Shown in pieces: positions 2 to 36,966 of a DNA stretch of 42,416 nucleotides. A program made the position numbers and the translations under genes. Within the stretch, counting starts at the first letter, position 1. Each line of letters opens with the position of its first letter. Source of the DNA: Deltaproteobacteria bacterium (GTDB lineage Bacteria > Desulfobacterota > UBA8473); assembly GCA_030623035.1 (NCBI GenBank), contig JAUXFK010000002.1, positions 1-42,416 on the forward strand, given 5' to 3'. The notes under the pieces are model-generated. The model did not search any database. It saw only the letters and a list, made by a program, of their open reading frames with translations, and was not told the origin of the DNA.

Positions 2-1132
2 ATTTACGTAAGAGCGGAATATCCACTGGCAATCAAGAGGTTGCAAATCGCCATAGCGCAGGCAAATGAAAAAGGGTTTCTAGGAAGCAACATCCTGGGG
101 AAGGGTTTCGATTTCGATATTGAGATATTCCAGGGTGCTGGAGCCTTTGTATGCGGTGAGTCAACGGCTCTGACCTTGTCTATCGAGGGGAAAAGGGGAA
201 TGCCAAAGGCTGCACCCAGACCACAGACAACAGAAAAAGGAATTTTTGACAAGCCGACTCTCTTGAATAATGTGAAGACTTTCGCTTCTGTTCCTCTGAT
301 CATTACCCGAGGTGGAGGCTGGTTTGCCAGTGTGGGTACAGAAAAGAGCAAAGGAACTGCTGTCTTTGCTCTCACAGGCAAGGTAGAAAACTGCGGACTG
401 ATAGAAGTACCAATGGGCATTACACTCCGTGAGATTGTCTATGATGTTGGGGGTGGAATTCCATTGGGTAAAAAATTCAAGGCGGTTCAAACGGGAGGCC
501 CCTCCGGAGGTTGCTTACCCGCGTCCCTTCTGGACACACCTGTGGACTATGACTCACTGAACGCAGCGGGTGCAATAATGGGATCCGGCGGCATGGTTGT
601 CATGGATGAAGAGACCTGTATGGTCGATGTTGCCCGATATTTCCTCGATTTTACTCGGAAAGAGTCCTGTGGGCAATGTGTGCCTTGTTCCTTAGGCACA
701 AAGCAGATGCTGGATATATTAAAGGATATAACTCAGGGGAAGGGGAGGCCTACAGATGTGGAACTTCTCATAGAAATAGCCGAGGCAGTCAAGGACGGTT
801 CTCTATGTGGTCTTGGAAAGAGCGCTCCAAACCCGGTGCTTACAGCCATCCGCTACTTTCGAGAGGAATATGAAGCACACATCAATGAAAAACGTTGTCT
901 GGCCAAGGTTTGCAAATCGCTTATCTCCTTTTATATTTTGCAGGATAAGTGCAAGGGCTGTGGAATCTGTCTGAAAGCATGTCCTGTAGAGGCGATCACA
1001 GGCGAGAAAAAAGAAGTCCACTACATAGATCAATCCAAGTGTATCAGATGCGGAATGTGTTTAGAGAAATGTCCTACGAAATTTAGCGCTGTTGAGTGCA
1101 TTCCTGGACAGTTGAATGATGGAGGTGAATAA
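2..1132 (+). CDS. nuoF: NuoF-family NAD(H)/FMN flavoprotein subunit with C-terminal 2x[4Fe-4S] ferredoxin domain (complex I 51-kDa / formate dehydrogenase beta, HydB/HylB-like); 5' end outside window
   Basis: Frame is open from base 2 ([21 protein letters not shown] precedes the track's TTG start at 41). Motifs: [13 protein letters not shown] (FMN/NADH site), [12 protein letters not shown] and LCGLG (N3-type cluster), then [12 protein letters not shown] and [12 protein letters not shown]. Stop lies 3 nt before the next gene. Confidence 0.9.
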
Positions 1133-1135
1133 GTA

Positions 1136-3814
1136 ATGGCCGAAGTTAGTCTCACAATCGATGGTTTAGAGATCACTGCAAATAAAGATATGACTGTATT
1201 AGAAGCAGCGCTTGAAAACAGCATTTACATCCCTCATCTTTGTCATCATCCGGATTTAGAACCCGCTGGTATGTGTAGATTATGTATGGTGGAGGTTGAT
1301 GGAAAGAGAATGGTTATCTCGTGTAAGACCCAGATAAGGGATGGGATGGTCGTGAGAACGGAAAGTGAAAGAATCAATCGAATACGAAAGATCACTGTTC
1401 AACTTCTGATCGCAAACCATCAGGGGGATTGCCTGTCCTGTAATAAGAGTACGACCTGTGAACTCCAATGTATTGCGAGTTATTTAGGAATAAAAGAAGA
1501 AGAGCTGGATCTTATGAGACGTTCCGACAAGATACGTCCCATTGATACCTCAAATCCTTTTTTCGATTATGATCCCAATAAATGTGTTCTCTGTGGCATC
1601 TGTGTACGGACATGTGCAGAATTGCAGGGGGTCAGCGCTATTGATCTGGCCTTTCGAGGCTTTGACACGAGTATCTCTACGTTTGGAGCCAAGCCTTGGG
1701 TAGAGTCCAATTGTGAGTCGTGTGGAGAGTGCATAATTAGATGTCCTGTGGGTGCGCTTATGCCCAAGCATCAGTTGAGGCCTTCTTTCGAGGTAAGAAG
1801 CGTATGCCCGTATTGCGGGTGTGGGTGTGGCATGTATCTGGGGGTACGAGCCGGTCGTATTGTAGGTGTGAGAGGTGAAATCGACAATCCTTCCAACAGG
1901 GGAAGTCTCTGTGCAAAGGGACGTTTCGGCTATGAATTTGTCAACCACCCTCAGCGGCTTACTGAACCGCTTATCAAGAAAAACGGCGAATTTGTTGAAG
2001 CCTCATGGGAGGAGGCACTGGAACTGGTTACGGAAAAATTCTCTCAATACAGGGGGGAACAGTTTGCCTGTATTGCTTCTGCCAAGTGTACAAATGAAGA
2101 GAACTACGTTTTACAAAAATTTACCCGGGTGGTGATGGGCACGAATAATATCGACCACTGTGCGCGGCTTTGACATGCCCCTACAGTGGCCGGTCTGGTC
2201 ACCTCATTGGGAAGTGGGGCAATGACGAATCCGATCAGCGATATCGGTGGAGCGTCGTGTATTCTTGCTGTAGGAACCAATACAACCGTTGCGCATCCCA
2301 TTGTCGGACTTCAGGTGAAAAAGGCGGTACAAAACGGTGCAAAGCTGATCGTCATTAATCCAAAAGAGATTGATCTCTGCCGATTTGCGGATATCTTTCT
2401 GCAGAACAAGCCGGGAACGAATATTGCCCTGCTTATGGGGATGATGCGGATCATCGTGGATGAAGGTCTTCTGGACGCTTCGTTCATCGAGAGCCGTTGC
2501 GAGAATTTTGATGATTTCAAAGAATCCCTGAAAAATTTCGATATACTCACAGTGGAAAAGATTACAGGAGTGCCAAAGGAAGACATAATCGAAGCAGCCA
2601 GGTGTTATGCCACCAATAAACCGGCTTCTATTCTATACGCAATGGGCATTACGCAGCATATTCACGGTACGGATAATGTGATGGCAACCAGCAACCTGGC
2701 ATTACTTACAGGGAACATTGGTATGCCATCAACAGGGGTCAACCCTTTGCGTGGACAGAACAATGTTCAGGGCGCTTGTGATATGGGTGCGTTACCCAAT
2801 GTTTATCCAGGTTATCAACGGGTAGACGATTCGGTGGTACAGAAGAAATTTGAATCTTTCTGGTTCCAAGACTTACCCAGCTCCCCAGGGCTTACACATA
2901 CAGAGATATTCGATGCCGTCCATGATGGAGAAATAAAAGCGATTTACCTGGTCGGTGAAAACCCTATTTTAAGTGAGGCAAATGCCAGCCATACAGAGGC
3001 TGCTATTGCCAAGATTGAGTTTCTAGTGGTTCAGGATATATTCCTTACTGAAACAGCAAGATTAGCTGATGTTGTGCTGCCGGCTGTAACCTTTGCGGAA
3101 AAAGACGGGACATTTACAAATACTGAGAGGCGGGTCCAGAGAGTACGCAAGGCAATAGAACCGGTTGGTAATGCTAAAAATGATTTGTGGATAACGTGCC
3201 AGATTGCTCAAAGAATGGGGGGGAAGGGTTTTGATTTTTCCAGTCCTTTTGAAGTCATGAAAGAGATAGCCTCAGTCACACCCCAGTACAAGGGCATCTC
3301 TTACGACCGCCTGGACAAAGGCGGATTGCAATGGCCCTGTGTTTCGGAGGATCACCCCGGTACACCGATTCTCCATATTGAGCGGTTTGCAACAAAAAGC
3401 GGGAAGGCAAAGTTTATGCCGCTGGAATACAAACCATCCGCAGAACTCCCGGACGATGAGTATCCTTTACTGCTTACTACTGATCGTAGTCTGTTTCACT
3501 TTCATACAAGCACAATGACTGGAAGGGTAGAGGGTCTCAATGTGTTGGACGGCCATGAATTCGTTAGGATAAATCCGAAAGATGCGGCCCGTTTTGAGGT
3601 TACGGATGACCAGATGGTACGGGTATTCTCCAGAAGGGGAGAGGTGGAAGCCAAGGCAAAAGTGACGGATGTTTGCCCACCAGGGGTGGTATCTATGACC
3701 TTTCATTTTCCTGAAAGTCGGACTAACGTCCTTACCAACTCCGCGTTAGACCCTGTGGCAAAAATACCTGAGACGAAAGTCTGTGCGGTACGGGTAGAGG
3801 GGATGAAACAGTAA
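1136..3814 (+). CDS. fdhA: Formate dehydrogenase alpha subunit (molybdo/tungstopterin bis-MGD), selenocysteine-containing; in-frame TGA at 2171-2173 read as Sec
   Basis: ORF-track pieces 1136..2173 and 2186..3814 share one frame and are separated only by TGA. Context is NNIDHCARL-U-HAPTVAGL...GSGAMTN. N-terminal 2Fe-2S (CHHPDLEPAGMCRLCMVE), HQGDCLSCNKSTTC, two CxxCxxCxxxCP motifs, CPYCGCGC Mo-domain cluster, AMGITQH, PLRGQNNVQG. RBS GGAGGTGA upstream of ATG 1136. Confidence 0.9.
2186..2202 (+). promoter_or_regulatory. SECIS-like hairpin 12 nt downstream of the UGA codon
   Basis: GTGGCC-GGTCT-GGTCAC: 6-bp stem (one G-U pair) with GGUCU apical loop, resembling the E. coli fdhF SECIS loop as I recall it. 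Confidence 0.65.
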
Positions 3815-4022
3815 AACAGGAGACTGGCACAAGATAAAAAAGGGGAAGAAGGGATCATGTTAGAAGATGTTGTCTTAGATGATTATATAAATAACAATCG
3901 CAATAATATTTTTTTGGTGGAGCTGCATGATATGTATATCTTTTAGCTGCCCTGCGATGTTATAGTATTGGGATGGTAGCAGTTTAGTTCAACAAAAATC
4001 TACTATAGGAAAAGGCATTAGG

Positions 4023-6698
4023 ATGGTCAGTTTAACGATTGATGGAAAAGAGGTTGTAGCAGAAGAAGGTACTACAATTTTGAAAGCTGCAAAGTCTGTG
4101 GGAATTGATATACCCACCCTTTGTTATCATGAAAGATTGAATCCGATAGGTTCTTGCAGGATGTGTGTAGTAGAAATAGAGGGGCTGCCCCATCCGATGA
4201 CTGCGTGTAATACACCGGTTGTTGAAGGCATCAAAGTCACCACTGCTTCTGGACGGCTTTTGAGGATGAGAGAGGAAACCCTCAAATTGATTCTAGTGAA
4301 TCATCCCCTTGACTGCCCCATATGTGATAAGGGTGGAGAATGTACCCTTCAGGATCTGGTACATGAGTTTGAGATAGATGGCGCAGGTTACCAGGCTATA
4401 AGAGAGAAGCGAGAGTCATCGTACGCTACTCCCCTCATTCACTACTGGCCTGACAGGTGTATAATGTGTCTGCGCTGTATTACAGCATGCAGAGAGATAA
4501 AAGGGTTGGGTGCAATCGATATTAGCGGGTCCGGTTTTGATGCAAGTGTAGTCGCCGTAGATAAGGATAAGTGCGAGTCGTGCGGTGAATGTATCAGTGT
4601 ATGTCCGACGGGTGCGTTGACAGAAAATCTAAGTCAATATAAAGCACGTCCGTGGATGGTAGATCGAGTTATGACTACATGTACCTATTGCGGATGTGGG
4701 TGCCAGCTTGAGATCAATGTGTTGGATAATAGGATTACAAGCATAACAACAAAAGATCACGTAGGCATAAATAAGGGCAGTCTTTGCGTAAAAGGACGTT
4801 TTGGATATGAATTTATAGAGAGCGAGGAACGGATTACTAAGCCTCTTGTTAAGAAGAATGGAGAGTTTCATGAGGCGAGCTGGGAGGATGCATTAAATCT
4901 GGTTGCTGAGAACTTTAATACTATCAAAGCCTCACACGGGGCAGATGCGATTGCGTGTCTTTCCTCTGCCCGCTGCACCAATGAGGAAAACTATCTCATT
5001 CAGAAACTGATGCGCGCAGTTATTGGAACGAATAACATAGACCACTGTTCCAGGCTTTGGCACTCTTCTACCGTGGCAGGTCTTGCAACAGCATTTGGTA
5101 GCGACGCAATGACAAATCCTATTGCTGATGTCTTGAAGTCAGAAGCAATATTGGTAACAGGGAGTAATACTACAGAAAATCATCCAATCTTTGCAAATTA
5201 CATTAAAGAGGCTGTATTAAAGAAAGGAGCCAAATTAATAGTTGTTGACCCCAGGAAGATTGATCTGGTTGATTATGCCGGCATCTGGCTTAGACCAAAA
5301 CCTGGTACTGACATCGCATGGATTAATGGGTTACTCCATATTATTATTAAGGAAAATTTGCATGCTGCAGAATATATCAAAGAGAGAACCGAAGGGTTTG
5401 AAGAACTCAAAGCCTGTGTTGAAAAATATACCCCAGAGTATGTTTCAGAGATAACCGGTATAAAAGCCTCTGACTTGGTTAATACGGCCATTACTTATGG
5501 AAAGGCTAAGCCGGCCTCAATAATGTATGCTATGGTAATCACTCAGCATATAAATGGAACTGATAATGTAAAGTCCCTGGCAAACCTTGCAATGCTATGC
5601 GGTAACATTAGTGTTGAAGGAGGAGGTGTTAATCCTCTGCGAGGGCAGAATAATGTTCAGGGAGCTTGTGACCTTGGCGCCTTGCCGAATGTTTTCACAG
5701 GCTATCAACCGGTTACCAATGATGAAGTCAGACAGAAGTTTGAAATGGCATGGGGGGTGGATAATCTACAAGGGAAAGTTGGACTTACCGTCACTGAGAT
5801 GTTTAATGCTGCAGAAGAAGGAAAAGTAAAGGCAATGTACATTATGGGTGAGAATCCCCTGCTCAGTGATCCTGATCTTAATCATATAGAACATTGCATA
5901 AAATCATTGGATTTTTTAGTAGTTCAGGACATATTTTTAACAGAAACTGCGAAGTACGCTGATGTGGTTCTTCCTGCTGTATCTTTTGCCGAAAAGGATG
6001 GAACATTTACAAATTCCGAAAGAAAGGTTCAGCGTATAAGGAAGGCGATTAAACCACGAGGAGAGGCTAAGGAAGGCTACCGGATAATATGTGAGTTGTC
6101 CAATAAGTTGGGATTCCGGATGGATTATAGTAGTCCGAGGAACATTATGGAGGAGATACGCAAAGTAACCCCCAGCTACGCTGGTATTACTTATGAACGA
6201 ATCGAGGAAGAGGGTATTCAATGGCCGTGTCCGGATGAAGGCCATCCTGGGACGCCGATCCTTCATGTGGGACAATTTGCAAGAGGTAAGGGGCAATTCA
6301 CAGCCATTGAATATCAGGAACCGGCTGAACTGCCGGATGATGAGTACCCATTCTTACTGGCCACAGGAAGGGTATTTGCGCATTACCATGCCGGTACAAT
6401 GACCAGTAAGGGAAAGGGACTTAACATGCTTTATCCTGAGCTTCTTGTAGAGATAAATCCGGATGATGCAGTAAGTCTGGGTATCGCATCCGGTGATTCT
6501 GTTCATATCACATCCCGTCGAGGAGATATTAAGGTAAAGGCACAAGTAAGTGAAAGACCGGACAGGGGAGTTGTATTTCTTCCCTTTCATCTCAAAGAGT
6601 CACCGGCAAATATATTAACAATAAATGCTATCGACCCTATAGCTAAGATACCACAATACAAGGTATGTGCAGTACGAATAGAGGGGATAAAACAGTAA
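4023..6698 (+). CDS. FdhA-type molybdopterin oxidoreductase paralogue with Trp (TGG 5058-5060) at the Sec/Cys ligand position; candidate non-catalytic NuoG-like subunit
   Basis: Collinear with 1136..3814 over its whole length and has the same cofactor-binding Cys motifs. Codon 346 is TGG where the upstream copy has TGA (also codon 346). GSDAMTN replaces GSGAMTN and AMVITQH replaces AMGITQH. Confidence 0.85.
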   Translation: MVSLTIDGKEVVAEEGTTILKAAKSVGIDIPTLCYHERLNPIGSCRMCVVEIEGLPHPMTACNTPVVEGIKVTTASGRLLRMREETLKLILVNHPLDCPICDKGGECTLQDLVHEFEIDGAGYQAIREKRESSYATPLIHYWPDRCIMCLRCITACREIKGLGAIDISGSGFDASVVAVDKDKCESCGECISVCPTGALTENLSQYKARPWMVDRVMTTCTYCGCGCQLEINVLDNRITSITTKDHVGINKGSLCVKGRFGYEFIESEERITKPLVKKNGEFHEASWEDALNLVAENFNTIKASHGADAIACLSSARCTNEENYLIQKLMRAVIGTNNIDHCSRLWHSSTVAGLATAFGSDAMTNPIADVLKSEAILVTGSNTTENHPIFANYIKEAVLKKGAKLIVVDPRKIDLVDYAGIWLRPKPGTDIAWINGLLHIIIKENLHAAEYIKERTEGFEELKACVEKYTPEYVSEITGIKASDLVNTAITYGKAKPASIMYAMVITQHINGTDNVKSLANLAMLCGNISVEGGGVNPLRGQNNVQGACDLGALPNVFTGYQPVTNDEVRQKFEMAWGVDNLQGKVGLTVTEMFNAAEEGKVKAMYIMGENPLLSDPDLNHIEHCIKSLDFLVVQDIFLTETAKYADVVLPAVSFAEKDGTFTNSERKVQRIRKAIKPRGEAKEGYRIICELSNKLGFRMDYSSPRNIMEEIRKVTPSYAGITYERIEEEGIQWPCPDEGHPGTPILHVGQFARGKGQFTAIEYQEPAELPDDEYPFLLATGRVFAHYHAGTMTSKGKGLNMLYPELLVEINPDDAVSLGIASGDSVHITSRRGDIKVKAQVSERPDRGVVFLPFHLKESPANILTINAIDPIAKIPQYKVCAVRIEGIKQ

Positions 6699-6744
6699 GA
6701 CAAAGGACGAAAACAGGAAAAAATTAAAGGGGTTAAAAGGGGTT

Positions 6745-7806
6745 ATGTCGGAATTAATAATAGCATTGTCAATAATAATGGTTAAGGTAACAGTTGTCTT
6801 TTCTGTTCTAATGTTGATGGTAGCCTATGTTCCTTTAATGGAAAGGAAAGTTCTAGGACACATGCAGGTAAGGCATGGACCGAGGAGAGTAGGCTGGCAT
6901 GGTTTGTTGCAGCCTATTGCCGATGGATTAAAACTCTTCTTTAAAGAAGAGATAATCGTTGACCATGCCAATAAAGGATTATACCATCTTGCTCCTGTTT
7001 TGTATATGACCTGTGCATTGGCTCTCTATGCTGTTATCCCATTCGGAAATGAGATAAATATCCTGGGGAGGGTTATTCCATTACACATTGCAGACGTAAA
7101 TATCGGGATTCTCTATATATTTGCCATCTCTTCTCTGGGTATATACGGCGTGGTTTTGGCGGGATGGTCTTCAAATAATAAATACTCTTTATTGGGAGCT
7201 ATTAGAGCTTCTGCCCAGATGATAAGTTATGAGTTGCCGTTAGGGCTTTCTATTATAGGGGTTGTAATGCTTGCAGGGTCATTGAGTATGGTTGAGATAG
7301 TCAATGCCCAAGAGAATGTATGGTTTATTCTATTACAACCATTTGGGTTCCTTTTATATTTAATCTGTGCCTTTGCAGAGTGTTCCAGGACGCCGTTTGA
7401 CCTTGTTGAATGTGAAAATGAGCTCGTTGCCGGTTATCAAACGGAATACAGCTCTATGAAATTCGCCCTATTTTATATGGCAGAGTATACGCATATCATT
7501 GCAGTAAGTGCCATTGCAGTGACCCTTTTTCTAGGTGGGTGGAGAGACCCCCTCATGTCTCCAGTCGTATGGGTACTTGAAAGGATACCCGTTTTGGGTA
7601 GCCTTACAATACAGCTTATTGGTCTTGTTCCTCCAGTTGTCTGGTTTTTAATGAAAGTAATTTCCTTTGTGTTCTTTTTCATTTGGGTTAGGGCTACTTT
7701 TCCCAGATTCAGGTATGACCAGCTCATGGGGTTTGGATGGAAGGTGCTTCTTCCATTGACCCTGGTCAATATAGTTATAACCGCTTTTATTATGATAATT
7801 GTTTAA
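6745..7806 (+). CDS. nuoH: NADH:quinone oxidoreductase subunit H
   Basis: LMERKVLGHMQVRHGPRRVGWHGLLQPIADGLKLFFKE signature; multi-TM; operon position. Confidence 0.95.
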   Translation: MSELIIALSIIMVKVTVVFSVLMLMVAYVPLMERKVLGHMQVRHGPRRVGWHGLLQPIADGLKLFFKEEIIVDHANKGLYHLAPVLYMTCALALYAVIPFGNEINILGRVIPLHIADVNIGILYIFAISSLGIYGVVLAGWSSNNKYSLLGAIRASAQMISYELPLGLSIIGVVMLAGSLSMVEIVNAQENVWFILLQPFGFLLYLICAFAECSRTPFDLVECENELVAGYQTEYSSMKFALFYMAEYTHIIAVSAIAVTLFLGGWRDPLMSPVVWVLERIPVLGSLTIQLIGLVPPVVWFLMKVISFVFFFIWVRATFPRFRYDQLMGFGWKVLLPLTLVNIVITAFIMIIV

Positions 7807-7831
7807 GACTTTAGGTATAAAGACCATTAGG

Positions 7832-7990
7832 TAGTGTCCATCCAGAAATGAGAAATTTTGTTCAAGGTCAAGGAAGACGAAGATTTTAACCGCAGGAATA
7901 TATTGACATGTAGGGGCACATTGCGATGTGCCCTTACATCTGAGCCTGACGCAGAGATTGGGCAAAATGGCCATTTATGGATGGACACTA
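7832..7990 (+). mobile_element. MITE-like element, copy 1 (terminal inverted repeats TAGTGTCCATCCAGAAATG / CATTTATGGATGGACACTA)
   Basis: 19-bp TIRs with one mismatch. Near-identical to the reverse complement of 34080..34224 except for the central segment. Lies in the nuoH-nuoI spacer. Confidence 0.8.
7908..7939 (+). repeat. REP-like hairpin of the GTAGGGGC...GCCCTTAC type nested in MITE copy 1
   Basis: ATGTAGGGGCACAT-TGCG-ATGTGCCCTTACAT: 14-bp stem with one G-T pair. Absent from MITE copy 2. Confidence 0.75.
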
Positions 7991-8057
7991 GGTAAGTGGA
8001 TGAAGACAATGGTAAACTTGCTTTCTATATAAGAGGTAAAGAGAATAGGAGAGTTCG

Positions 8058-8456
8058 ATGATTATACCGCTCGTCAAAGGCTTAAGTCTTACGTTTCGAA
8101 GGTTTTTTTCAAAACCCATAACCATACTCTATCCAGAACAGAGATGGGAGTGTTATCCCAGATTTAGGGGGCGTCATCAGCTCCAAAGGAAGGAAGATGG
8201 GAGTGCGAAATGTGTTGCTTGTCAATTGTGTGCCACAGTCTGCCCTTCCGAATGCATTCGTGTTGTGACTGTTGAAGGGCCAGACCATGAAAGGTATGCT
8301 GAGAGTTATGAAATTGACTTAAGCCGATGTATATTTTGCGGATATTGTGTTGAAGCATGCCCCGTTGGGGCAATAGTTATGACCGGCGAGTATGAATTGG
8401 CCACCTATAATCGTGATGATACCCAATACAATATGGAAATGCTTCTAGAAAAATAG
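8058..8456 (+). CDS. nuoI: NADH:quinone oxidoreductase subunit I (2x[4Fe-4S])
   Basis: CVACQLCATVCP and CIFCGYCVEACP motifs; size; operon position. Confidence 0.95.
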   Translation: MIIPLVKGLSLTFRRFFSKPITILYPEQRWECYPRFRGRHQLQRKEDGSAKCVACQLCATVCPSECIRVVTVEGPDHERYAESYEIDLSRCIFCGYCVEACPVGAIVMTGEYELATYNRDDTQYNMEMLLEK

Positions 8457-8481
8457 TATAACATAAAAGGAGTTATGGATT

Positions 8482-8991
8482 ATGACAGCCTTTTTCTTCT
8501 TTCCCATCGCTATAGTCGTATTAATTTCGGCAAGTTTGGTCATCTTTTTTCGAAACCCGGTACATAGTGCCTTATCCCTGCTTTTGACTTTTTTCAGTCT
8601 TGCAGGTCTATATATCCTTCTCAATGCCCAGTTTGTTGCTGCGATTCAGGTTATTGTATATGCGGGGGCCATAATGGTTCTCTTTTTGTTTGTAATTATG
8701 TTGCTCAATTTAGACAAAGTAAAGAAGGAGAGAGAAAGACACCCCTTGCAAAAGGCCTTTGGGATTCTAATCGCTTCTCTTTTACTGGTGGTCTTGGGCT
8801 CGGTTATCGCTTCGGGAATATTATACGGAACCAAAGGAATCTATACTGTTGAAAAGGTAGCTGCTATAGGGAATACAAAGGCTATAGCAGGTTTGCTCTT
8901 TACCGATTGGATTCTCCCCTTTGAGATAACTTCCATACTTTTATTGGCCGCTATTGTAGGGGCTATTGTTTTGTCAAAGAAGGAGTTGTAA
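8482..8991 (+). CDS. nuoJ: NADH:quinone oxidoreductase subunit J
   Basis: Hydrophobic 169-aa protein between nuoI and nuoK with the typical [18 protein letters not shown] segment. Confidence 0.9.
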
Positions 8992-8993
8992 AG

Positions 8994-9296
8994 ATGGTAC
9001 CGATATCATATTATCTTATACTTTCGGCGGTTTTATTCACCATTGGAGTTATAGGGGTCTTGGTCAGGAGGAACGCTATCATCATATTCATGTGTATAGA
9101 ACTCATGTTGAATGCCGTAAACCTGTCCTTTGTGGCCATATCAAAACACCTCGATTCGTTGGATGGACAGATATTTGTTATTTTTGTTATGACAGTGGCT
9201 GCCGCTGAAGTGGCAGTTGGACTGGCGATCATCATAAACCTGTTCAGGAATAAAGAGACCATTAACATTGATGAAGTTAATATTATGAAATGGTAG
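8994..9296 (+). CDS. nuoK: NADH:quinone oxidoreductase subunit K
   Basis: 100 aa, three TM segments, ELMLNAVNL and [11 protein letters not shown] motifs; starts 2 nt after the nuoJ stop. Confidence 0.95.
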
Positions 9297-9405
9297 TGAA
9301 AAAGTTTTTTGGTTTTACACTTTAGAAAATCATTTTTTTGCTATTTCAAGCTGGATTCTAAGTGAGAATAAGAGAATAAATTTCCGATAAAATTGGAGGA
9401 TGGAC

Positions 9406-18701: not shown

Positions 18702-19773
18702 TTATCTTCTCCACCTCTTCAATGATTCTCTCGGGATGAATTATTCCACCACCACCCGTGTTGTGCCTCGCCCACATCCCCAATAGATGAACGGGAACAG
18801 AGGTTTTTATCGAGGCCTCAACATCTTCTATCAATTGACCCTGACTGTCTTCGACTACTAATACCTTTTGTACTTTTGATGAAAGTTGGGATATCTGTTC
18901 CGCGGGAAAAGGCCAAAGAGTGATGGGACGTAACAACCCCAGTTTAAGCCCTTTATTGCGACCCATATCTACAGCACCTCGGGCTATTCTTGCAGATGAA
19001 CCATAGGCAACTATAAGTAAATCGCAATCTTCCGCCATATATGTTTCGTATCTTACTTCAGCCTTTTTTATTTCTTTGTATTTTTCTATCTGCTTCATGT
19101 GGTAGTTTACCACTCCACCATAAGTAAAAAAAGCAGCAATATGAGCGGCTCTATTTCCGCCTCTTTTCTCTTTTCCGGTCAATGCCCAGTCCTTCTTGGG
19201 GAGTGGTTCGAATTCCAATGTCCTTAACTCGATCGGTTCATCCATTTGACCCAATATAAAGTCGGTGACTAACAGAACGGGTGTCCTGTACTTATCTGCC
19301 AAAAAAAATGCAACTTGCATGAGGTCGAAGATTTCCTGGCATGACGCCGGTGCTAATACAATTGCTCGATATCCGCCGTGCCCGCAGCCTTTTGTTACCT
19401 GAAGATAATCGGTCTGTCCTCCCTGACCTCCTGTCCCGATTCCCGGCCCCATACGCATCACATTAACGATAACTGCCGGAATTTCTGTCTCAGCTAAATA
19501 GGATATACCCTCTGCCATCAGGCTGAAACCAGGACTGGATGTTGAAGTCATTATCCTTTCCCCTGCTAAACCCCCTCCGTATACCATGTAAATAGACCCG
19601 CTTTCACTTTCAGATTGGACAAAAACTCCGCCTATTTTTGGCAATTCCCTGGACATATATTCCGGAATCTCGCTTTGCGGTGTAATTGGATAACCGAAGA
19701 AGTATTTACAACCAGCCTGGATTGCTCCTCTGGCTACTGCATTATTCCCTGAAACAAAAATTCGATCTGACAT
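18691..19773 (-). CDS. korA: 2-oxoacid:ferredoxin oxidoreductase alpha subunit
   Basis: GNNAVARGAIQAGCKYFFGYPITPQSEI N-terminus typical of KorA/OorA/PorA. Confidence 0.9.
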   Translation of the reverse strand: MSDRIFVSGNNAVARGAIQAGCKYFFGYPITPQSEIPEYMSRELPKIGGVFVQSESESGSIYMVYGGGLAGERIMTSTSSPGFSLMAEGISYLAETEIPAVIVNVMRMGPGIGTGGQGGQTDYLQVTKGCGHGGYRAIVLAPASCQEIFDLMQVAFFLADKYRTPVLLVTDFILGQMDEPIELRTLEFEPLPKKDWALTGKEKRGGNRAAHIAAFFTYGGVVNYHMKQIEKYKEIKKAEVRYETYMAEDCDLLIVAYGSSARIARGAVDMGRNKGLKLGLLRPITLWPFPAEQISQLSSKVQKVLVVEDSQGQLIEDVEASIKTSVPVHLLGMWARHNTGGGGIIHPERIIEEVEKINGK

Positions 19774-22297: not shown

Positions 22298-23017
22298 TTA
22301 GGTGTTCTCAAATATGCTTTTCAAAATCTTTTTGCTCGTATTTGTGGGGCATTTATTTATTTTTTTATTTATGGCAGCTTCTATCTGGTCACTTCCATTT
22401 CTATCCGGATTTTCTCTGTCAAGAGACCATCTTGATGGATTGTTCCGAATATATTCCCTAATCTTGGTTAATTCATCTTCATGACGGATGACGTGTTCAT
22501 AATAATTTCGTTGCCAGAATTTTTCATGGAATGGTCGCCATGAACGCCGTTTAACATTACGAATATATTCATTGGTGGTCATGGTTTTAAACCATTGAAC
22601 AACCCTATGTAGGGGCGAACCCGTGTGTTCGCCCTTTTCTGGAGAGGCAACCCTGTGTGATGGGACAATATTTGGGTAGACACATTGATCTGGATAGACA
22701 CATGGGTCAGGGCAGACACATGGGTCAGGGCAGACACATGGGTCTGCCCCTACGTTTATGATAACACCATGAATGTGATTGGGCATAATAACGAATTCAT
22801 CCATCTCTATATCGGAAAATTTGGACGGCAATCTATTCCACCAATTCTTCACCATCATTCCTGCATCGGACAACCTCATTTCCGTGTCCATAATATCTCC
22901 CAATAAACATTCTCTATTGTGTACACAGATTGTTACGAAATACACCCCTGACTGGGAATAATCGTATTCTTTCAACCGTATTGATCTTCTATGATGAATA
23001 TCAGGATTGTATTTCAT
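22298..23017 (-). CDS. IS200/IS605-superfamily HUH tyrosine transposase of the REP-associated (RAYT-like, COG1943) type
   Basis: MPNHIHGVII (HUH motif) and RNYYEHVIRHEDELTKIREYIRNNPSRW (catalytic Tyr region). No partner tnpB. Confidence 0.85.
   Translation of the reverse strand: MKYNPDIHHRRSIRLKEYDYSQSGVYFVTICVHNRECLLGDIMDTEMRLSDAGMMVKNWWNRLPSKFSDIEMDEFVIMPNHIHGVIINVGADPCVCPDPCVCPDPCVYPDQCVYPNIVPSHRVASPEKGEHTGSPLHRVVQWFKTMTTNEYIRNVKRRSWRPFHEKFWQRNYYEHVIRHEDELTKIREYIRNNPSRWSLDRENPDRNGSDQIEAAINKKINKCPTNTSKKILKSIFENT
22611..22636 (+). repeat. REP-like hairpin A inside the transposase ORF
   Basis: AGGGGCGAAC-CCGTGT-GTTCGCCCTT preceded by TGT; same head sequence (TGTAGGGGC) as 7908..7939. Confidence 0.7.
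22677..22748 (-). repeat. Four tandem 18-nt units (in-frame PDPCVC/PDQCVY repeats); the last unit forms REP-like hairpin B
   Basis: TAGACACATTGATCTGGA / TAGACACATGGGTCAGGG / CAGACACATGGGTCAGGG / CAGACACATGGGTCTGCC. GGGCAGAC-ACATGG-GTCTGCCC (22728..22749) is a perfect 8-bp stem. On the minus strand it reads GTAGGGGCAGAC-CCATGT-GTCTGCCC. Confidence 0.8.
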
Positions 23018-25248: not shown

Positions 25249-26667
25249 ATGGTAGGGATTACTTCTTATGGGGCCTATATCCCTATGTACAGAATGAACC
25301 TACAGACGCTTGCCCAGACTTGGGGTGGCTATGCGGGAAAAGGTGAAAAGGCAGTGGCCAATTGGGATGAAGATAGCCTCACTATGGCTACTGAATCCTC
25401 AATCGACTGTCTGAACGGTATGGATAGGTCACTAATTGACGGCTTGTATTTTGCTACGACGACTCCGGCTTATAGAGAAAAACAAAATGCAAGTATAATT
25501 GCTAAGGTGATAGATTTGAGACGGGATATAATTACAGCGGATTTTACCAATTCAGTGAGGGGGGGGACAAGCGCTTTGAGGGCAGCTATAGACGCGGTTG
25601 GTGCCGGATCCGCAAAGAGGTTCCTGGTTGCTGCTGCCGATTGCCGTGTTGCAGCTCCGGATTCCAAGTTCGAAAATCTTTTCGGTGACGGTTCTGCTGC
25701 CCTTTTGATAGGAGATTCAGACATCGCTGCACAAATCGAAGGTAGTGCCAGTATCTCCAGTGAATTCATCGACATATGGAAGAAAGAGGGCGACAGGTTT
25801 GTCCAGGCATGGGAGGACAGATTCATAATTACCCAGGGCTACCTTGCTCATCTTGAAGAGATAATCTCCATCTTATTCAAGAAATATAACGCTACCTCTA
25901 AGGACTTCAGTAAGGTGGTATTCTATGCTCATGATCAACGAAGGCATGGTCAACTTGCAAAGAAGTTGGGTTTTGACCTAGAGACCCAGGTACAGGATCC
26001 ACTTATTTCCACAGTAGGTCATACGGGATCTGCCCAGGCAATGATGATGCTGGTGGCAGCACTAGAAGAGGCCAAACCAGGAGATAGAATCCTGTTTGCC
26101 AACTATGGCGATGGGGCAGATGCCTTCATCCTAAAGGTAACAGATCAGATAGAGAAGATCAGGGACAGGCGTGGCATAAAGAAAAACCTGGCATCGAAGA
26201 TGGGACTATCGTCCTATGGAAAGTATCTCCATTTCCGAAACCTTATGGATTGGGGTCAAAAACGAGAACCAGATAGGTATGGAGCGGTATCCATGTCATG
26301 GAGGGACAGGGACTGGGTCCTCAGTTGTCATGGGCACAAGTGCAGGCAGTGTGGCACCATACAGTTCCCAATGCAAAGGATATGCACATGGTGCCAGGCC
26401 AAGGATGACTTTGATGAAGTAAGGTTGTCGGACAAAAAAGGCATTCTCTTCACTTACAGCATGGATAACCTGGCTACATCAGTGGATAAACCAACAGTAA
26501 TCGCTATCGTCAATATTGACGGGGGAGGTAGGCTCTCTACTATATTGACGGATCGAGATCCTGAAAAGATCAGCCCTGATATGCCGGTAGAATTCACCTT
26601 TAGAAAAGTTCATGAAGGACAGGGCGTTATCAACTATTTTTGGAAATGCCGTCCATTAAGGGGATAA
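25249..26667 (+). CDS. HMG-CoA synthase-like domain fused to a DUF35 Zn-ribbon/OB-fold (acyl-CoA-associated) domain
   Basis: N-terminal GITSYGAYIPMYRM...DEDSLTMA...GGTSALRAA...FGDGSAALLIG follows the archaeal HMGCS layout. C-terminal CRQCG...CTWC Zn ribbon plus OB region from about aa 350. RBS AAGGAGG. Confidence 0.8.
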   Translation: MVGITSYGAYIPMYRMNLQTLAQTWGGYAGKGEKAVANWDEDSLTMATESSIDCLNGMDRSLIDGLYFATTTPAYREKQNASIIAKVIDLRRDIITADFTNSVRGGTSALRAAIDAVGAGSAKRFLVAAADCRVAAPDSKFENLFGDGSAALLIGDSDIAAQIEGSASISSEFIDIWKKEGDRFVQAWEDRFIITQGYLAHLEEIISILFKKYNATSKDFSKVVFYAHDQRRHGQLAKKLGFDLETQVQDPLISTVGHTGSAQAMMMLVAALEEAKPGDRILFANYGDGADAFILKVTDQIEKIRDRRGIKKNLASKMGLSSYGKYLHFRNLMDWGQKREPDRYGAVSMSWRDRDWVLSCHGHKCRQCGTIQFPMQRICTWCQAKDDFDEVRLSDKKGILFTYSMDNLATSVDKPTVIAIVNIDGGGRLSTILTDRDPEKISPDMPVEFTFRKVHEGQGVINYFWKCRPLRG

Positions 26668-26680
26668 GGAGGGATGAAAA

Positions 26681-27898
26681 ATGGCAGAGAGTTTTAAAGA
26701 CAAAGTTGCAATAATTGGCATGGGATGTTCCAAATTTGGCGAAAATTGGGACTTGGGAAGCGAAGATATGATCGTCGACGCCACCTATAATGCATTGGAG
26801 GATGCAGGAATTGAGATGAAGGATATTGATGCAGCATGGGTAGGAACAATAGGGTTCACCGGTACTGGAGCCGGTATGACGTCTACTGGTATTACCGGGG
26901 CAGCAATATCGATGCCATTGAAGCTCCAATACAAGCCTGTTACCCATGTGGAGAACGGATGTGCTACAGGGACAGATGCCTTGAGAAACGCAGCCTTTGC
27001 TGTAGCTGCCAAGGTCTATGACATCGTCCTTGTGGTGGGTGTCGAAAAGCTCAAGGATACTGGTTATGGAGGACTTGGTGAGCTGTCCATACCTCCACAC
27101 CCTGTATTTGAGGGGGGTATAACTGCTCCTGGCATGTATGCCCTGGCAGCAACCAGATACTTTAAAAAGTATGGGCTCAGTCCTGAAGAGGGGAAGAAGA
27201 TGCTGGCAAAGGTATCGGTAAAGAGTCACTATAATGCCTCAAGAAACCCCAGGGCTCACCTTCGAAATGTCATAACCGAAGAGCAGGTGTTGAATGCACC
27301 AGTGATTGCATGGCCCCTTGGGTTATTCGATTGCTGCGGTGTGACGGACGGGGCAGGTGTGGCGATCCTCTGCCGTGCAGAAGATGCAAAAAAGTTTAGG
27401 GATGACTATGTACTCATCAAAGGATTGGGGCTCTCCATAGGTCCGGGGCAGGGCAGTATCAGGACGGATTATGACTTTACTATCTGGGACGAAACCGTAC
27501 ATGCGGCCAAAGAGGCCTATGCCATGGCAGGGATAAAGAATCCCCGAAAGGAACTCAGCCTCGTTGAGTGTCACGACTGTTTTTCCATCTCCGAGGTCAT
27601 AGCCGTCGAATCTCTGGGACTCTGCGAGAGGGGGAAAGCCATAGATGACCTCAATGCAGGTGCATGGACGCAGGAGGGTGATATACCCGTCAATCTCAGC
27701 GGGGGTTTAAAGGCCTTTGGCCATCCTATCGGTGCCAGTGGCTGCAGAGAAGCCTATGAGGTATATAAGCAGCTTCAGGGAAAGGCAGAAGACAAGTCAC
27801 GTCAGGTAAAGAATCCGCGAATGGGGCTCGTTCATAATCAGGCAGGTCTGCCAGGGAAATTCATGTGTGCGGTGGCTGTTTATGGGCTACCTGATTAA
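26681..27898 (+). CDS. Thiolase, archaeal / SCP-x (DUF35-partnered) type acetyl-CoA acetyltransferase-like
   Basis: ENGCATGTDALRNAAFAVA (nucleophile Cys), [20 protein letters not shown]; starts 13 nt after the previous stop with RBS AAGGAGGGA. Confidence 0.85.
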   Translation: MAESFKDKVAIIGMGCSKFGENWDLGSEDMIVDATYNALEDAGIEMKDIDAAWVGTIGFTGTGAGMTSTGITGAAISMPLKLQYKPVTHVENGCATGTDALRNAAFAVAAKVYDIVLVVGVEKLKDTGYGGLGELSIPPHPVFEGGITAPGMYALAATRYFKKYGLSPEEGKKMLAKVSVKSHYNASRNPRAHLRNVITEEQVLNAPVIAWPLGLFDCCGVTDGAGVAILCRAEDAKKFRDDYVLIKGLGLSIGPGQGSIRTDYDFTIWDETVHAAKEAYAMAGIKNPRKELSLVECHDCFSISEVIAVESLGLCERGKAIDDLNAGAWTQEGDIPVNLSGGLKAFGHPIGASGCREAYEVYKQLQGKAEDKSRQVKNPRMGLVHNQAGLPGKFMCAVAVYGLPD

Positions 27899-34332: not shown

Positions 34333-34893
34333 TCAGATATGCTCAACTTCTTCAAGGAATTCGTCAAGAGTTATTATTCTGAAAAGCGGGTATATCGGTG
34401 ACTTACGATAGAGCTTAATCGCAGTATCATGGAGTTCCCTCTTAGGTGCAGCGCAACAGTCCTCCAGAATAATAACACGAAAGTCATTGGCCAGACCATC
34501 CCACGCGGTAAGCATCACACACACATGGGTATTCATGCCGCAGACTGCAATCGTATCTGCCCCAAGGGTTCTGAGGGTCATGTCAAGGTCTGTCCTGAAG
34601 AATGCGCTAAACCGCCTCTTCTCCAGAATCATATCCTCTGCTTCTGGTTTCAACTCGTCTATCACCTCGACCCCTTCTGTCCCACGGATAGGTCCGGAAC
34701 GCATCTTGCCTCCAAACATAAAATCCTGAGACAGAAAGCTGTCGCATGCGTATATGATCGGGATATTTGCGCTCCTGCTCTCCCTTAAGAGCTTCTGGAT
34801 GTTCGATATTATCCCCTCACTCTTTGCTTTAACGGTGGGGTTGCTGCCAACCCCACCCTTCAACATGTCGACTACAATTATGGCTGGTTTCAT
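34333..34893 (-). CDS. Isochorismatase-family cysteine hydrolase
   Basis: AIIVVDM (Asp), K in [20 protein letters not shown] (Cys): the family catalytic triad pattern. ATGA overlap with the upstream hbd stop. Confidence 0.8.
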
Positions 34894-35744
34894 TTACTGT
34901 ATTCGTAAAACCCCCTTCCTGTTTTTCTTCCTAGATATCCGGCTTCCACATACTTTTTTAAAAGAGGACATGGGCGGTACTTTGGATCGCCCAGTTCATT
35001 ATGAAGTACCTCCAGTATGGCCAGGCATGTGTCCAGCCCGATTAAATCGGCCAGTGTGAGAGGGCCCATAGGGTGGTTCATCCCCAGTTTCATCACAGTA
35101 TCTATTGCCTCTGGTTTCCCAACCCCTTCGTAGAGGGCAAAAACAGCTTCATTTATCATGGGAAGCAGAATCCTATTGGCAATAAAACCGGGAAAGTCCT
35201 TTGCCTCAGCCGGAGTTTTACCCATCTTTTCTGCAAGTTTCATCACCGTATCAAAGGTCTCATCAGAGGTGGGTAGCCCCCTGATAACCTCTACTAACTG
35301 CATCATGGGAACAGGGTTCATGAAGTGCATGCCTATAACCCTGTCTGGTCTTTTGGTTGCAGAGCCGATCTTTGTAATGGATATAGATGAAGTGTTACTC
35401 GCCAAAATCACATCAGCTTTACAGACCTCATCGAGTTTCCTAAAGATATCAAGCTTGACAGGAAGATTCTCTGTGGCAGCTTCAACAACAAAGTCAGCTT
35501 TTTCCATATCTTCTAATTTAGTGGTGCCGGAGATTTTTTTCAATATCTCCTCTTTTTTTTCAAGGGTAATCTTTTCCTTTTTGAGCATCCTATCCAGGCT
35601 TTTGGATATAGAGGATATTCCTCCCTTTACAAAATCGTCCTTTATGTCGTTTATTATAACGTCGAACCCGGTAGCAGCCGCAACCTGGGCGATCCCGCTT
35701 CCCATCTGCCCAGCGCCAATAACACCAAAAGTTTTGATCTCCAT
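34890..35744 (-). CDS. hbd: 3-hydroxybutyryl-CoA (3-hydroxyacyl-CoA) dehydrogenase
   Basis: [17 protein letters not shown]-binding motif, SNTSS, GMHFMNP, PGFIANR; AAGGAGGAA RBS. Confidence 0.92.
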
Positions 35745-35781
35745 ATAGTTCCTCCTTTTCCCTGATCATCAGGTTTGTTCA

Positions 35782-36966
35782 TCAACTCTCCATATCTACT
35801 ATAACAGCAGCCCCTTGCCCTCCGCCAACGCATAGGGTTGCCAGACCTAAATTAGAGCCTCTTTTCTTCATTTCATATAATAGTGTGATCAGTATCCTTG
35901 CACCACTGGCACCTATGGGGTGGCCCAGGGCAATAGCTCCACCATTAACATTTACATTATTTAAATCCCATCCCATCTCTCTATTCACATACAATGCCTG
36001 GGCCGCAAATGCCTCATTTGCCTCTATTAAGTCCAGGTCTGAAACGGTCAACCCCGCCTTATCCATAGCCTTTTTACTGGCCGGAACAGGGGCTGTGCCC
36101 ATAATGGACGGGTCAACGGCCGCAGTTGCGTAGGATTTTATTTTAGCCATAGGTTCTATGCTTAATTCCTTAGCCTTGTCTTCAGACATTATTAACAGAG
36201 CAGCCGCACCATCGTTGATACCAGAGGCATTGCCTGCGGTGACCGTCCCGCCCTTTTTAAATGCCGGCGGCAGTTTTGCCAATCCCTCTTTTGTGGTTTT
36301 GGATCTGGGATGCTCATCGGTATCGAACATCTTTACCTCCCCTTTTTTCTGGGGTATCTCCACAGGTACAATCTCATCTTTAAACCTTCCTTCTTCTATG
36401 GCCTTGGCAGCCTTGATCTGGCTTCCAAGTGCAAATTCGTCCTGCTCTTCCCTTGTAATACCGAATTTGTCTGCTATATTTTCAGCCGTAATTCCCATAT
36501 GGTAGCCATTGAATATTTCCCACAGACCGTCATGCACCATGAGGTCAACCAACTTATCGTCGTTCATCCTGATCCCCCAACGGGCTTTGTTAATGGCATA
36601 AGGAGCCCTGCTCATATTCTCCATACCACCTGCAATAATTATATCAGCGTCCCCCACCATTATTGACTGGGCTGCCAGGAGTACAGATTTCATCCCTGAT
36701 GCGCATACTTTATTGACAGTGAATGAGGGGACTTCCTGGGGTATCCCCGCGCCTATTGCTGCCTGTCTGGCAGGATTTTGCCCCAGGCCTGACTGTAAAA
36801 CATTCCCAAATATTACTTCGTCTATTTGATCCCTGTTTAACCCGGTCCTTTTTATTACCTCTTCGATGACCTTAACCCCTGTATCTATGACGGAAATGTC
36901 TTTAAGGGAACCGCCAAAAGTGCCTACAGCAGTCCTAACACCACATGCAATTACAACCTCTCTCAT
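35782..36966 (-). CDS. Acetyl-CoA C-acetyltransferase (thiolase II)
   Basis: [11 protein letters not shown] (Cys nucleophile), [28 protein letters not shown]; AGGAGG RBS. Confidence 0.93.

Follow-up and report, generated by a model that had tools for sequence, protein, structure and literature searches.

The DNA analysed here, referred to as the window, is a 42,416-nt stretch of contig JAUXFK010000002.1 (assembly GCA_030623035.1) from a deltaproteobacterium, and carries two neighbouring genes for formate dehydrogenase (FDH) alpha subunits, fdhA copy 1 and an fdhA-like copy 2. The order on the forward strand is the 3′ part of a nuoF-like gene, copy 1, a 208-nt spacer, copy 2 and nuoH-I-J-K-L-M-N (6745–14454), so that copy 2 lies in the position of nuoG. 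Copy 2 has Trp in the column that holds the selenocysteine (Sec) or Cys ligand of Mo/W. We propose, with a probability of roughly 0.7, that its product is a catalytically dead, NuoG-like electron-transfer scaffold, and that formate oxidation would be carried out by copy 1 together with NuoE and NuoF.

A Trp codon in the metal-ligand column

HMMER alignments with solved structures placed Trp346 of copy 2 (local peptide DHCSRL-W-HSSTVAGL) on the Mo ligand Cys386 of FdsA from R. capsulatus (RcFdsA; 6tg9: ARVCHSPT) and also on the Cys of FdhF from the T. kivui hydrogen-dependent CO2 reductase. We take this column to be that of EcFdhH Sec140 and RcFdsA Cys386. The same alignments pair His347 with His387 and Arg540 with Arg587 of RcFdsA, both residues being kept in copy 2. 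As a reference set we used 181 active-looking homologues that keep the Sec/Cys-His-Arg triad; the ligand column contains Cys in 128 of these and Sec in 53.

An earlier reading made from the letters of this DNA (the sequence-only reading) had reported TGA in copy 1 and TGG in copy 2 at the same codon, 346, had assigned the Trp to the ligand column and had noted the changes GSGAMTN to GSDAMTN and AMGITQH to AMVITQH. All of these are real, and two further substitutions that it overlooked, G530S and A343S, add to them (Table 1). It was also right that the Fe-S Cys motifs (19/19 Cys) and PLRGQNNVQG are intact. Copy 2 matches the consensus at 123 of the 126 positions with a conservation of 97 % or more among the active-looking FdhAs, the ligand being an additional departure. 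At these near-invariant positions copy 1 shows no departures, the active-looking homologues a mean of 0.87 (standard deviation 1.41, maximum 7) and older degenerate relatives up to 17. With so few departures, compared with those of the older degenerate relatives, copy 2 has a lesion that is of young age and centred on its active site.

The TGG is found again in L001, a second assembly that is close to the window but not identical with it (99.86 % identity, 23 mismatches over 16.7 kb), and is thus not an accident of assembly; L001 also has the same base breaking the stem of the Sec insertion sequence (SECIS) described below. It is therefore hardly credible that the true codon is TGA or TGC and that TGG is a sequencing or assembly artefact, even if TGA to TGG is a single-base change and two W-bearing public fragments come from fragmented, low-coverage assemblies. 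Besides its presence in an independent assembly, TGG is accompanied by the synonymous change in the SECIS stem and by three glycine substitutions, and the nearest relatives are likewise without Sec. The two public fragments (P0123 and P0132) were retrieved with a 69-aa peptide around the Trp, a search in which all matches were fragments of less than ca. 120 aa; they lie on heavily fragmented or very low-coverage contigs, one of them beside a transposase, and were discarded as unreliable. Copy 2, with 16 % of the compared length, accounts for seven of the 23 mismatches with L001, two of them nonsynonymous (S343A and G420D); copy 1 has just one.

Table 1. Coordinates of genes, codons and motifs in the window.
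Feature	Position	Strand	Remarks
nuoF-like flavoprotein subunit	41..1132	+	Pfam NADH_4Fe-4S, Complex1_51K, SLBB, Fer4
fdhA copy 1, Sec-containing FDH alpha subunit	1136..3814	+	In-frame TGA, conserved positions, clade grouping
Copy 1 TGA Sec codon, codon 346	2171..2173	+	
Copy 1 SECIS apical hairpin, GTGGCC-GGTCT-GGTCAC	2186..2202	+	In predicted minimum-free-energy fold
Intergenic spacer between the fdhA genes	3815..4022	+	Last ca. 100 nt conserved with L082
fdhA-like copy 2, nuoG position	4023..6698	+	891 aa, full FdsA-type architecture, without metal ligand
Copy 2 N-terminal Fe-S region	4023..4790	+	One [2Fe-2S] and four [4Fe-4S] motifs, 19/19 Cys
Copy 2 A343S (TCC)	5049..5051	+	Ala in 178/181; window-specific, L001 has GCC
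Copy 2 TGG (Trp346), codon 346	5058..5060	+	Sec/Cys Mo/W-ligand column
Copy 2 decayed SECIS remnant, GTGGCA-GGTCT-TGCAAC	5073..5089	+	Third stem pair broken, synonymous GCC>GCA
Copy 2 G361D (GAC), GSGAMTN > GSDAMTN	5103..5105	+	Gly in 175/181, Ala in 6/181, Asp never
Copy 2 G505V (GTA), AMGITQH > AMVITQH	5535..5537	+	Gly in 181/181
Copy 2 G530S (AGT), GNIG > GNIS	5610..5612	+	Gly in 181/181
Copy 2 retained catalytic-site Arg540	5640..5642	+	Arg587 of RcFdsA
nuoH	6745..7806	+	Pfam NADHdh
nuoI	8058..8456	+	Pfam Fer4 dicluster
nuoJ	8482..8991	+	Pfam Oxidored_q3
nuoK	8994..9296	+	Pfam Oxidored_q2
nuoL	9400..11373	+	Pfam Proton_antipo_N/M
nuoM	11404..12972	+	Pfam Proton_antipo_M
nuoN	12985..14454	+	Pfam Proton_antipo_M

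Copy 1 and the SECIS remnant of copy 2

Copy 1 (local peptide CARL-U-HAPTVAGL) displays the bacterial selenoprotein feature, an in-frame UGA with a SECIS hairpin at 12 nt. Its relatives are Sec- or Cys-containing FdhAs (60–71 % identity) that follow a nuoF-like gene, with nuoH not nearby; FdhAs of this type were found in Planctomycetota, Chloroflexota and other phyla, and members of the clade were never seen adjoining nuoH. Copies 1 and 2 share 49 % amino-acid identity and belong to separate FdhA clades, and so did not arise by a recent duplication. The TGA of copy 1 is thus the wrong comparison for the TGG of copy 2, the right one being the Sec-bearing orthologues of copy 2. The proposal of a recent inactivation in the sequence-only reading holds with respect to those orthologues (77–82 % identity) and fails with respect to copy 1.

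The hairpin remnant of copy 2 begins 12 nt after codon 346, at the same offset as in copy 1, and the Sec-bearing orthologues have at this place a perfect stem, GTGGCA-GGTCT-TGCCAC. In copy 2 the hairpin was missing from the predicted minimum-free-energy fold (−7.6 kcal/mol, vs −12.7 for orthologue L003, whose predicted fold contains it; that of L011 differs). An in-frame UGA with a SECIS hairpin is found in orthologues L003 and L009 and not in copy 2. Largely retained, as first described, is therefore true of the sequence and of its 12-nt offset, and the residual similarity is the result of coding constraint on VAGL, as the sequence-only reading had suspected; largely retained is not true of the structure, with a stem pair broken and the hairpin absent from the predicted fold. 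None of these short hairpins did better than shuffled controls, so that the weight rests on the comparative argument.

Orthologues of copy 2 in nuo operons and repeated loss of the triad

The copy 2 clade comes from metagenome-assembled genomes of uncultured Thermodesulfobacteriota (“Deltaproteobacteria”), with identities of 67–91 %. Orthologues with 67–72 % identity occupy the same nuo slot in 11 genomes (among L008–L015, L018, L021, L031 and L043), in operons with the order nuoA-B-C-D, a gene for a ca. 650-aa GltD-like flavoprotein, fdhA and nuoH-I-J-K-L-M-N. The flavoprotein contains NADH_4Fe-4S (NuoF-type), Fer4_20 and Pyr_redox_2 domains, and no nuoE, nuoF or other nuoG was found in these operons. 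TGA-His-Arg and a predicted SECIS hairpin are present in 11/11 of these orthologues. This operon type (e.g. L009, 3153–18557), found also in L088, L089 and L090, may specify a formate/NAD(P)H-driven complex I.

Closer to copy 2 (77–82 % identity) are the Sec-bearing FdhAs of L003, L004, L007, L011 and L049, none of them near nuo genes. A GltD-like gene lies upstream in all five, directly adjacent except in L004, and the neighbours in L003 and L011 include genes for electron transfer flavoproteins (ETF) and for the Wood-Ljungdahl pathway. The nearest relative, P0002/L082 (91 % identity), has a Cys-Gln-Lys triad, and triads were lost in diverse ways across the clade (Table 2). Ligand codons comprise TGA, TGG, TGT/TGC, TCA and GGA, each replacement that was read being one base away from TGA.

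Table 2. Non-canonical triads, written ligand-His-Arg, within and near the groups of copy 2 relatives. The codon is given where it was read; the cells for P0005, P0006/L088, P0011/L090, P0012/L089 and P0016 are those of codons not read.
Sequence	Triad	Ligand codon
Window / L001	W-H-R	TGG
P0009 / L085	W-H-R	TGG
P0002 / L082	C-Q-K	TGT
L002	C-Q-Q	TGT
P0004 / L084	G-H-C	GGA
L006	S-H-R	TCA
P0005	S-H-Q	
P0006 / L088	C-L-R	
P0011 / L090	C-D-R	
P0012 / L089	C-H-H	
P0016	C-Q-H	

In a neighbour-joining (NJ) tree the window sequence was closest to P0002 (C-Q-K) and then to L002 (C-Q-Q), and this trio was surrounded by Sec-bearing sequences. P0009, the second protein with Trp, fell in a different lineage, beside a C-H-R protein; it also has G505E, and its gene (L085) adjoins nuoE-nuoF-fdhA(Sec). 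Trp thus arose at least twice, as a tip state, and does not define a clade, a possibility raised by the sequence-only reading.

Members of the clade stand directly before nuoH at 17 loci, and six of these have lost at least one triad residue (W-H-R, C-Q-K, C-Q-Q, C-L-R, C-H-H and C-D-R). At the distinct loci adjacent to NuoEF genes (window/L001, L082, L002, L084 and L085, from at least three lineages) the copy 2-type subunit is degenerate in 5/5, and at four of them (window/L001, L082, L084 and L085) a second, Sec-containing FdhA is found beside NuoEF. This association of decay with NuoEF is suggestive. The complete nuoA-N operon of L002 contains, between nuoF and the degenerate C-Q-Q fdhA-like gene, a gene (5711–7891) whose 726-aa product joins an N-terminal Fe-S domain of NuoG type (Fer2_4, NADH-G_4Fe-4S_3, Fer4_Nqo3) to a GltD-like flavoprotein.

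Selection on copy 2 and mosaic structure of the operon

Selection was estimated from pairwise Nei-Gojobori ratios of nonsynonymous to synonymous substitution rates (omega, dN/dS). Within the degenerate trio of window, L082 and L002, omega for copy 2 was 0.17–0.25 (0.17–0.21 in the Fe-S domain and 0.17–0.27 in the Mo domain). The values were 0.125 for copy 1 and 0.07 for nuoF, both between window and L082, 0.04–0.17 for nuoH-N between window and L002, and 0.04–0.09 for pairs of Sec-bearing orthologues. Copy 2 is under purifying selection in both domains, relaxed by ca. two- to threefold and far from neutral, and its 891-codon reading frame is uninterrupted in the window and likewise in L001, L082 and L002, at dS up to 0.39. 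Copy 2 is full length, as the sequence-only reading had stated.

It is very unlikely that copy 2 is an early-stage pseudogene, dispensable since copy 1 was gained and too young to have acquired stops or frameshifts. Loss of the catalytic ligand, selection two to three times more relaxed than on neighbouring genes and the share of window-L001 differences in copy 2 (7/23) would all fit such a gene. They have to be set against a frame that stays open in four loci despite the synonymous divergence, omega far under 1 in both the Fe-S and the Mo domain, and the presence of 19/19 cluster cysteines. Additionally, no second nuoG candidate besides copies 1 and 2 exists between nuoF and nuoH, and the clade of copy 1 never occurs next to nuoH. 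The sequence-only reading, which saw in copy 2 a recently inactivated subunit, is incomplete in this respect: copy 2 stands in the nuoG position of a nuo operon and is best taken for a retained electron-transfer and scaffold subunit, not for a dying enzyme.

The nuoF-fdhA1-fdhA2 segment is near to L082 (dS 0.17–0.28), whereas nuoH-N is saturated with respect to L082 (dS ca. 2) and close to L002 (dS 0.4–0.6). The operon is therefore a recombination mosaic with a breakpoint near or within copy 2, where shared-derived sites number 30 for window and L082, 27 for L082 and L002, and 11 for window and L002. As to the source of TGG, both TGA and TGT come into question: in the NJ tree the window falls beside L082, which has TGT, yet the shared-derived sites are near balance, 30 vs 27, in an operon of mosaic origin.

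A probable retained scaffold versus a new enzyme

Copy 2 would descend from a Sec-dependent FdhA, of which sister lineages keep an apparently competent form in the same operon slot. In the window lineage the ligand codon changed to TGG, and three invariant glycines of the active-site loops gained side chains (G361D, G505V and G530S). With Trp at the ligand position and these substitutions, copy 2 would lack a protein ligand for Mo/W and be unable to oxidise formate; a continuing need for its five Fe-S clusters and its fold would account for its retention. The clusters would carry electrons from the NuoEF flavoprotein module to NuoI/NuoB, and copy 2, physically associated with the Nuo arm, would dock the peripheral arm. 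This is the role of canonical NuoG, with its cofactor-less molybdopterin-like domain. The former Mo/W site would be dead, perhaps plugged by the indole and by the new side chains at the three former glycines. In a division of labour, copy 1 with NuoE and NuoF would oxidise formate, probably as an FdsABG-like soluble module; the HdrA-like, FlpD/MvhD and GltD-like proteins encoded just upstream in L001 may be further partners. A sense codon in place of UGA would spare a structural subunit the cost and inefficiency of Sec insertion. Judging from these comparisons, copy 2 appears to be a young, independent repeat of the transition from FDH to NuoG.

Several observations weigh against this proposal. 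Arsenite oxidase, of the dimethyl sulfoxide reductase superfamily, is an active enzyme although no residue of the protein ligates its Mo. In copy 2, His347 and Arg540 are intact, as are essentially all motifs of the molybdopterin guanine dinucleotide (MGD) pocket, and cofactor binding, even some activity, may thus be possible. With 861 bits copy 2 passes the curated cut-off of the Fdh-alpha equivalog TIGR01591 (666), hence its public annotation as a formate dehydrogenase alpha subunit, and with 439 bits it falls just short of that of the NuoG equivalog TIGR01973 (470). The dN/dS between close relatives is inflated by slightly deleterious changes not yet purged, and so the degree of relaxation is uncertain. 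The simple rule that decay occurs only where NuoEF is present was rejected, since degenerate forms occur in three GltD-type operons and in the L006/P0005 lineage, of soluble context, as well. Finally, neither the window nor the 6 kb before it that are visible in L001 contain nuoABCD, so that a complete Nuo complex can only be presumed for the source genome.

The first two of these points would favour a neofunctionalised Mo/W enzyme that binds bis(pyranopterin guanine dinucleotide) and retains some catalysis without a protein metal ligand, as arsenite oxidase does, which we consider quite unlikely. Equally doubtful is the accompanying idea that Trp346, Asp361, Val505 and Ser530 give the pocket a new shape, suited to another substrate or to a redox-sensing role. 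Purifying selection on the Mo domain and the replacement of G505 also in the independent Trp lineage of P0009 would agree with a new function, as would the activity of ForC with a Cys-Gln-Arg triad (PMC8808070). Nevertheless, the lesions differ from lineage to lineage (W-H-R, C-Q-K, C-Q-Q, G-H-C, S-H-Q and S-H-R), which argues for relaxed constraint and not for convergence on a new active site. The replacements are all one-step mutational neighbours of TGA, and Trp is a tip state confined, in the window lineage, to 99.9 %-identical genomes. Moreover, Trp in this column is not known to us from any enzyme of the FDH family.

Neighbouring genes

The nuoF-like gene is cut by the start of the window, which contains its C-terminal 363 aa, including an extra C-terminal 2x[4Fe-4S] domain; the uncut NuoF of L001 has 628 aa and nuoE lies just before its gene. 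The stretch 1–7110 of L001, reaching ca. 6 kb before the window start, additionally encodes upstream of nuoF an HdrA-like protein, FlpD/MvhD, a GltD-like NAD(P)H oxidoreductase and a 286-aa protein resembling an HdrA fragment, followed by the NuoE and NuoF just mentioned. Such a set of genes points to a soluble, electron-bifurcating module in which copy 1 would be central.

It is unlikely, however, that copy 2 itself works in a soluble bifurcating complex with the upstream HdrA/MvhD/GltD-like/NuoEF proteins, its adjacency to nuoH being incidental. The same set of HdrA-like, FlpD/MvhD, GltD-like, NuoE and NuoF proteins is encoded upstream in both L001 and L082, nuoABCD are missing from the cluster, and relatives at 77–82 % identity (L003, L011 and L006) are soluble GltD-FdhA pairs beside ETF genes. 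Similar modules of the hdrA-mvhD-nuoEFG type have been described in Desulfotignum (PMC4046663). What argues for membership in a Nuo complex is that the junction of fdhA-like gene and nuoH is kept in 17 operons, including L002 with a complete nuoABCD-E-F-...-nuoN, and that the block from copy 2 to nuoN in the window is close to that of L002 (dS 0.4–0.6).

In alignments of the spacer between copies 1 and 2, conservation was found solely between window and L082, and a scan of this spacer for promoters and terminators gave nothing above chance. A gap of 250 nt (7807–8057) separates nuoH and nuoI. The gene call in L001 is a 63-aa nuoI fragment; a 132-aa nuoI frame (8058–8456) with a full Fer4 dicluster match exists despite this short call. 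Further downstream, a weak match to an IS200-like Y1 transposase (22298–23017, − strand) is situated between an ABC-2 transporter gene and a peptidase M50-like gene. The window also encodes 2-oxoacid:ferredoxin oxidoreductase (gamma, beta and alpha), thiolase-like/OB-fold proteins, 3-hydroxyacyl-CoA dehydrogenase and thiolase (17326–19773, −; 25249–27898, +; 34890–36966, −). This gene set is consistent with a fatty-acid-oxidising, syntroph-like organism, and fits a need for formate- and NADH-linked electron disposal.

Meaning of the copy 2 clade

The C-terminal domain of NuoG has long been accepted as a dead molybdoenzyme related to cytoplasmic FDHs; this, and the existence of ligand-less “FDH” sequences noted in bulk surveys, is established. 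To our knowledge, intermediates of the transition from FDH to NuoG have hitherto been missing. A tentative reading, which we hold possible rather than probable, is that this transition is ongoing and repeated in the present clade, where the NuoG slot is occupied by a competent Sec-FdhA that independently loses Sec, His or Arg in several sub-lineages. If true, the clade would supply natural intermediates for the way in which complex I gained a cofactor-less NuoG domain. It contains a graded series, from apparently active Sec forms in the NuoG slot through single-lesion forms, such as the Trp of the window, to heavily decayed forms, which makes the transition experimentally approachable. Where the slot is filled by a Sec-FdhA with a GltD-like NAD(P)H flavoprotein and without NuoEF, the complex would oxidise formate (and NAD(P)H) with quinone as acceptor and pump protons.

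Two further consequences follow. Copy 2 is publicly labelled a formate dehydrogenase alpha subunit though it has no metal ligand, and metabolic reconstructions would therefore count two FDHs where there is probably one. For selenoprotein evolution, the clade offers a case in which the Sec codon would be lost, by single steps to the sense neighbours of UGA, as catalysis becomes dispensable, the SECIS then decaying through synonymous changes.

Our literature search did not find a description of a Sec-FdhA in the NuoG slot or of the nuoABCD-gltD-fdhA-nuoH operon, which may be described elsewhere, nor of a repeated, graded decay of NuoG-slot FdhAs, with the Trp of the window among its youngest steps. 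The wider family of nuoABCD-gltD-fdhA-nuoH..N operons is a more interesting lead than the Trp variant of the window.

Comparison with known systems

From its sequence, copy 2 is best regarded as NuoG-like in position and architecture and as lying outside the canonical NuoG family. Of the features of FdhA/FdsA proteins it has the His and the Arg in PLRGQNNVQG; the Sec/Cys ligand is absent, and the glycine-rich active-site loops (GSGAMTN, AMGITQH and GNIG) are altered by G361D, G505V and G530S. Of those of NuoG it has the slot between nuoF and nuoH, a molybdopterin-like domain without metal ligand, and the N1b, N5, N4 and N7/FS0 motifs (Pfam Fer2_4, NADH-G_4Fe-4S_3, Fer4_Nqo3 and Molybdop_Fe4S4).

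Canonical NuoG/Nqo3, the 75-kDa subunit of complex I, branched off from the cytoplasmic FDHs and is cofactor-less, and the ligand Cys is missing from many “FDHs” in databases (PMC10100899). In M. smegmatis, NuoG has a GTP-like moiety in the MGD site and no FDH activity (PMC10068793). Copy 2 resembles NuoG/Nqo3 in gene position, in the N-terminal domain with [2Fe-2S] and [4Fe-4S] clusters, in the C-terminal molybdopterin-oxidoreductase fold, which has an FS0/N7-type cluster and lacks a metal ligand, and presumably in its role as electron wire and scaffold. In contrast, NuoG chains in the PDB align to copy 2 only over about residues 1–440, copy 2 is 50–85 % identical to genuine Sec/Cys FdhAs, and it has retained the His and the Arg, the motifs of the MGD pocket and the two ferredoxin-type clusters connecting FS0 with the main chain.

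FdsA of FdsABG (R. capsulatus 6tg9; 9wxb) aligns over residues 2–886 of copy 2 (E ca. 1e-226 to 1e-228) and shares the architecture of five clusters plus Mo domain, the His and the Arg. Copy 2 differs from it in having Trp for Cys386, in the replacement of three glycines near the active site and in its location in a nuo and not an fds operon. Another non-canonical triad is that of the menaquinone-linked FDH ForC (YjgC) of B. subtilis, which has an FdsA-like architecture with His replaced by Gln. ForC, with a Cys ligand and Arg, is experimentally active with its Cys-Gln-Arg triad (PMC8808070), whereas copy 2 is without a ligating residue.

The closest Sec-bearing relatives of copy 2 (L003, L011 and L007) are pairs of a Sec-FdhA and a GltD-like NAD(P)H subunit, of the NADP-dependent FdhAB type, and the nuo-embedded orthologues retain the GltD-like partner. 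An analogue of this FdhA/GltD-like pair is the SfrAB-like architecture. The window differs in having NuoE/NuoF and a second FdhA immediately upstream of copy 2, and in the loss of Sec.

Formate hydrogenlyase and the Fdh-Mfh-Mnh complexes are formate-oxidising relatives of complex I in which an FDH feeds a complex-I-like membrane module, which is presumably the ancestral state of the copy 2 clade. These complexes have a [NiFe]-hydrogenase module, and their FdhH/FdhF is without a NuoG-type N-terminal domain. The copy 2 system would instead comprise a quinone-reducing Nuo module with the FdhA itself in the place of NuoG.

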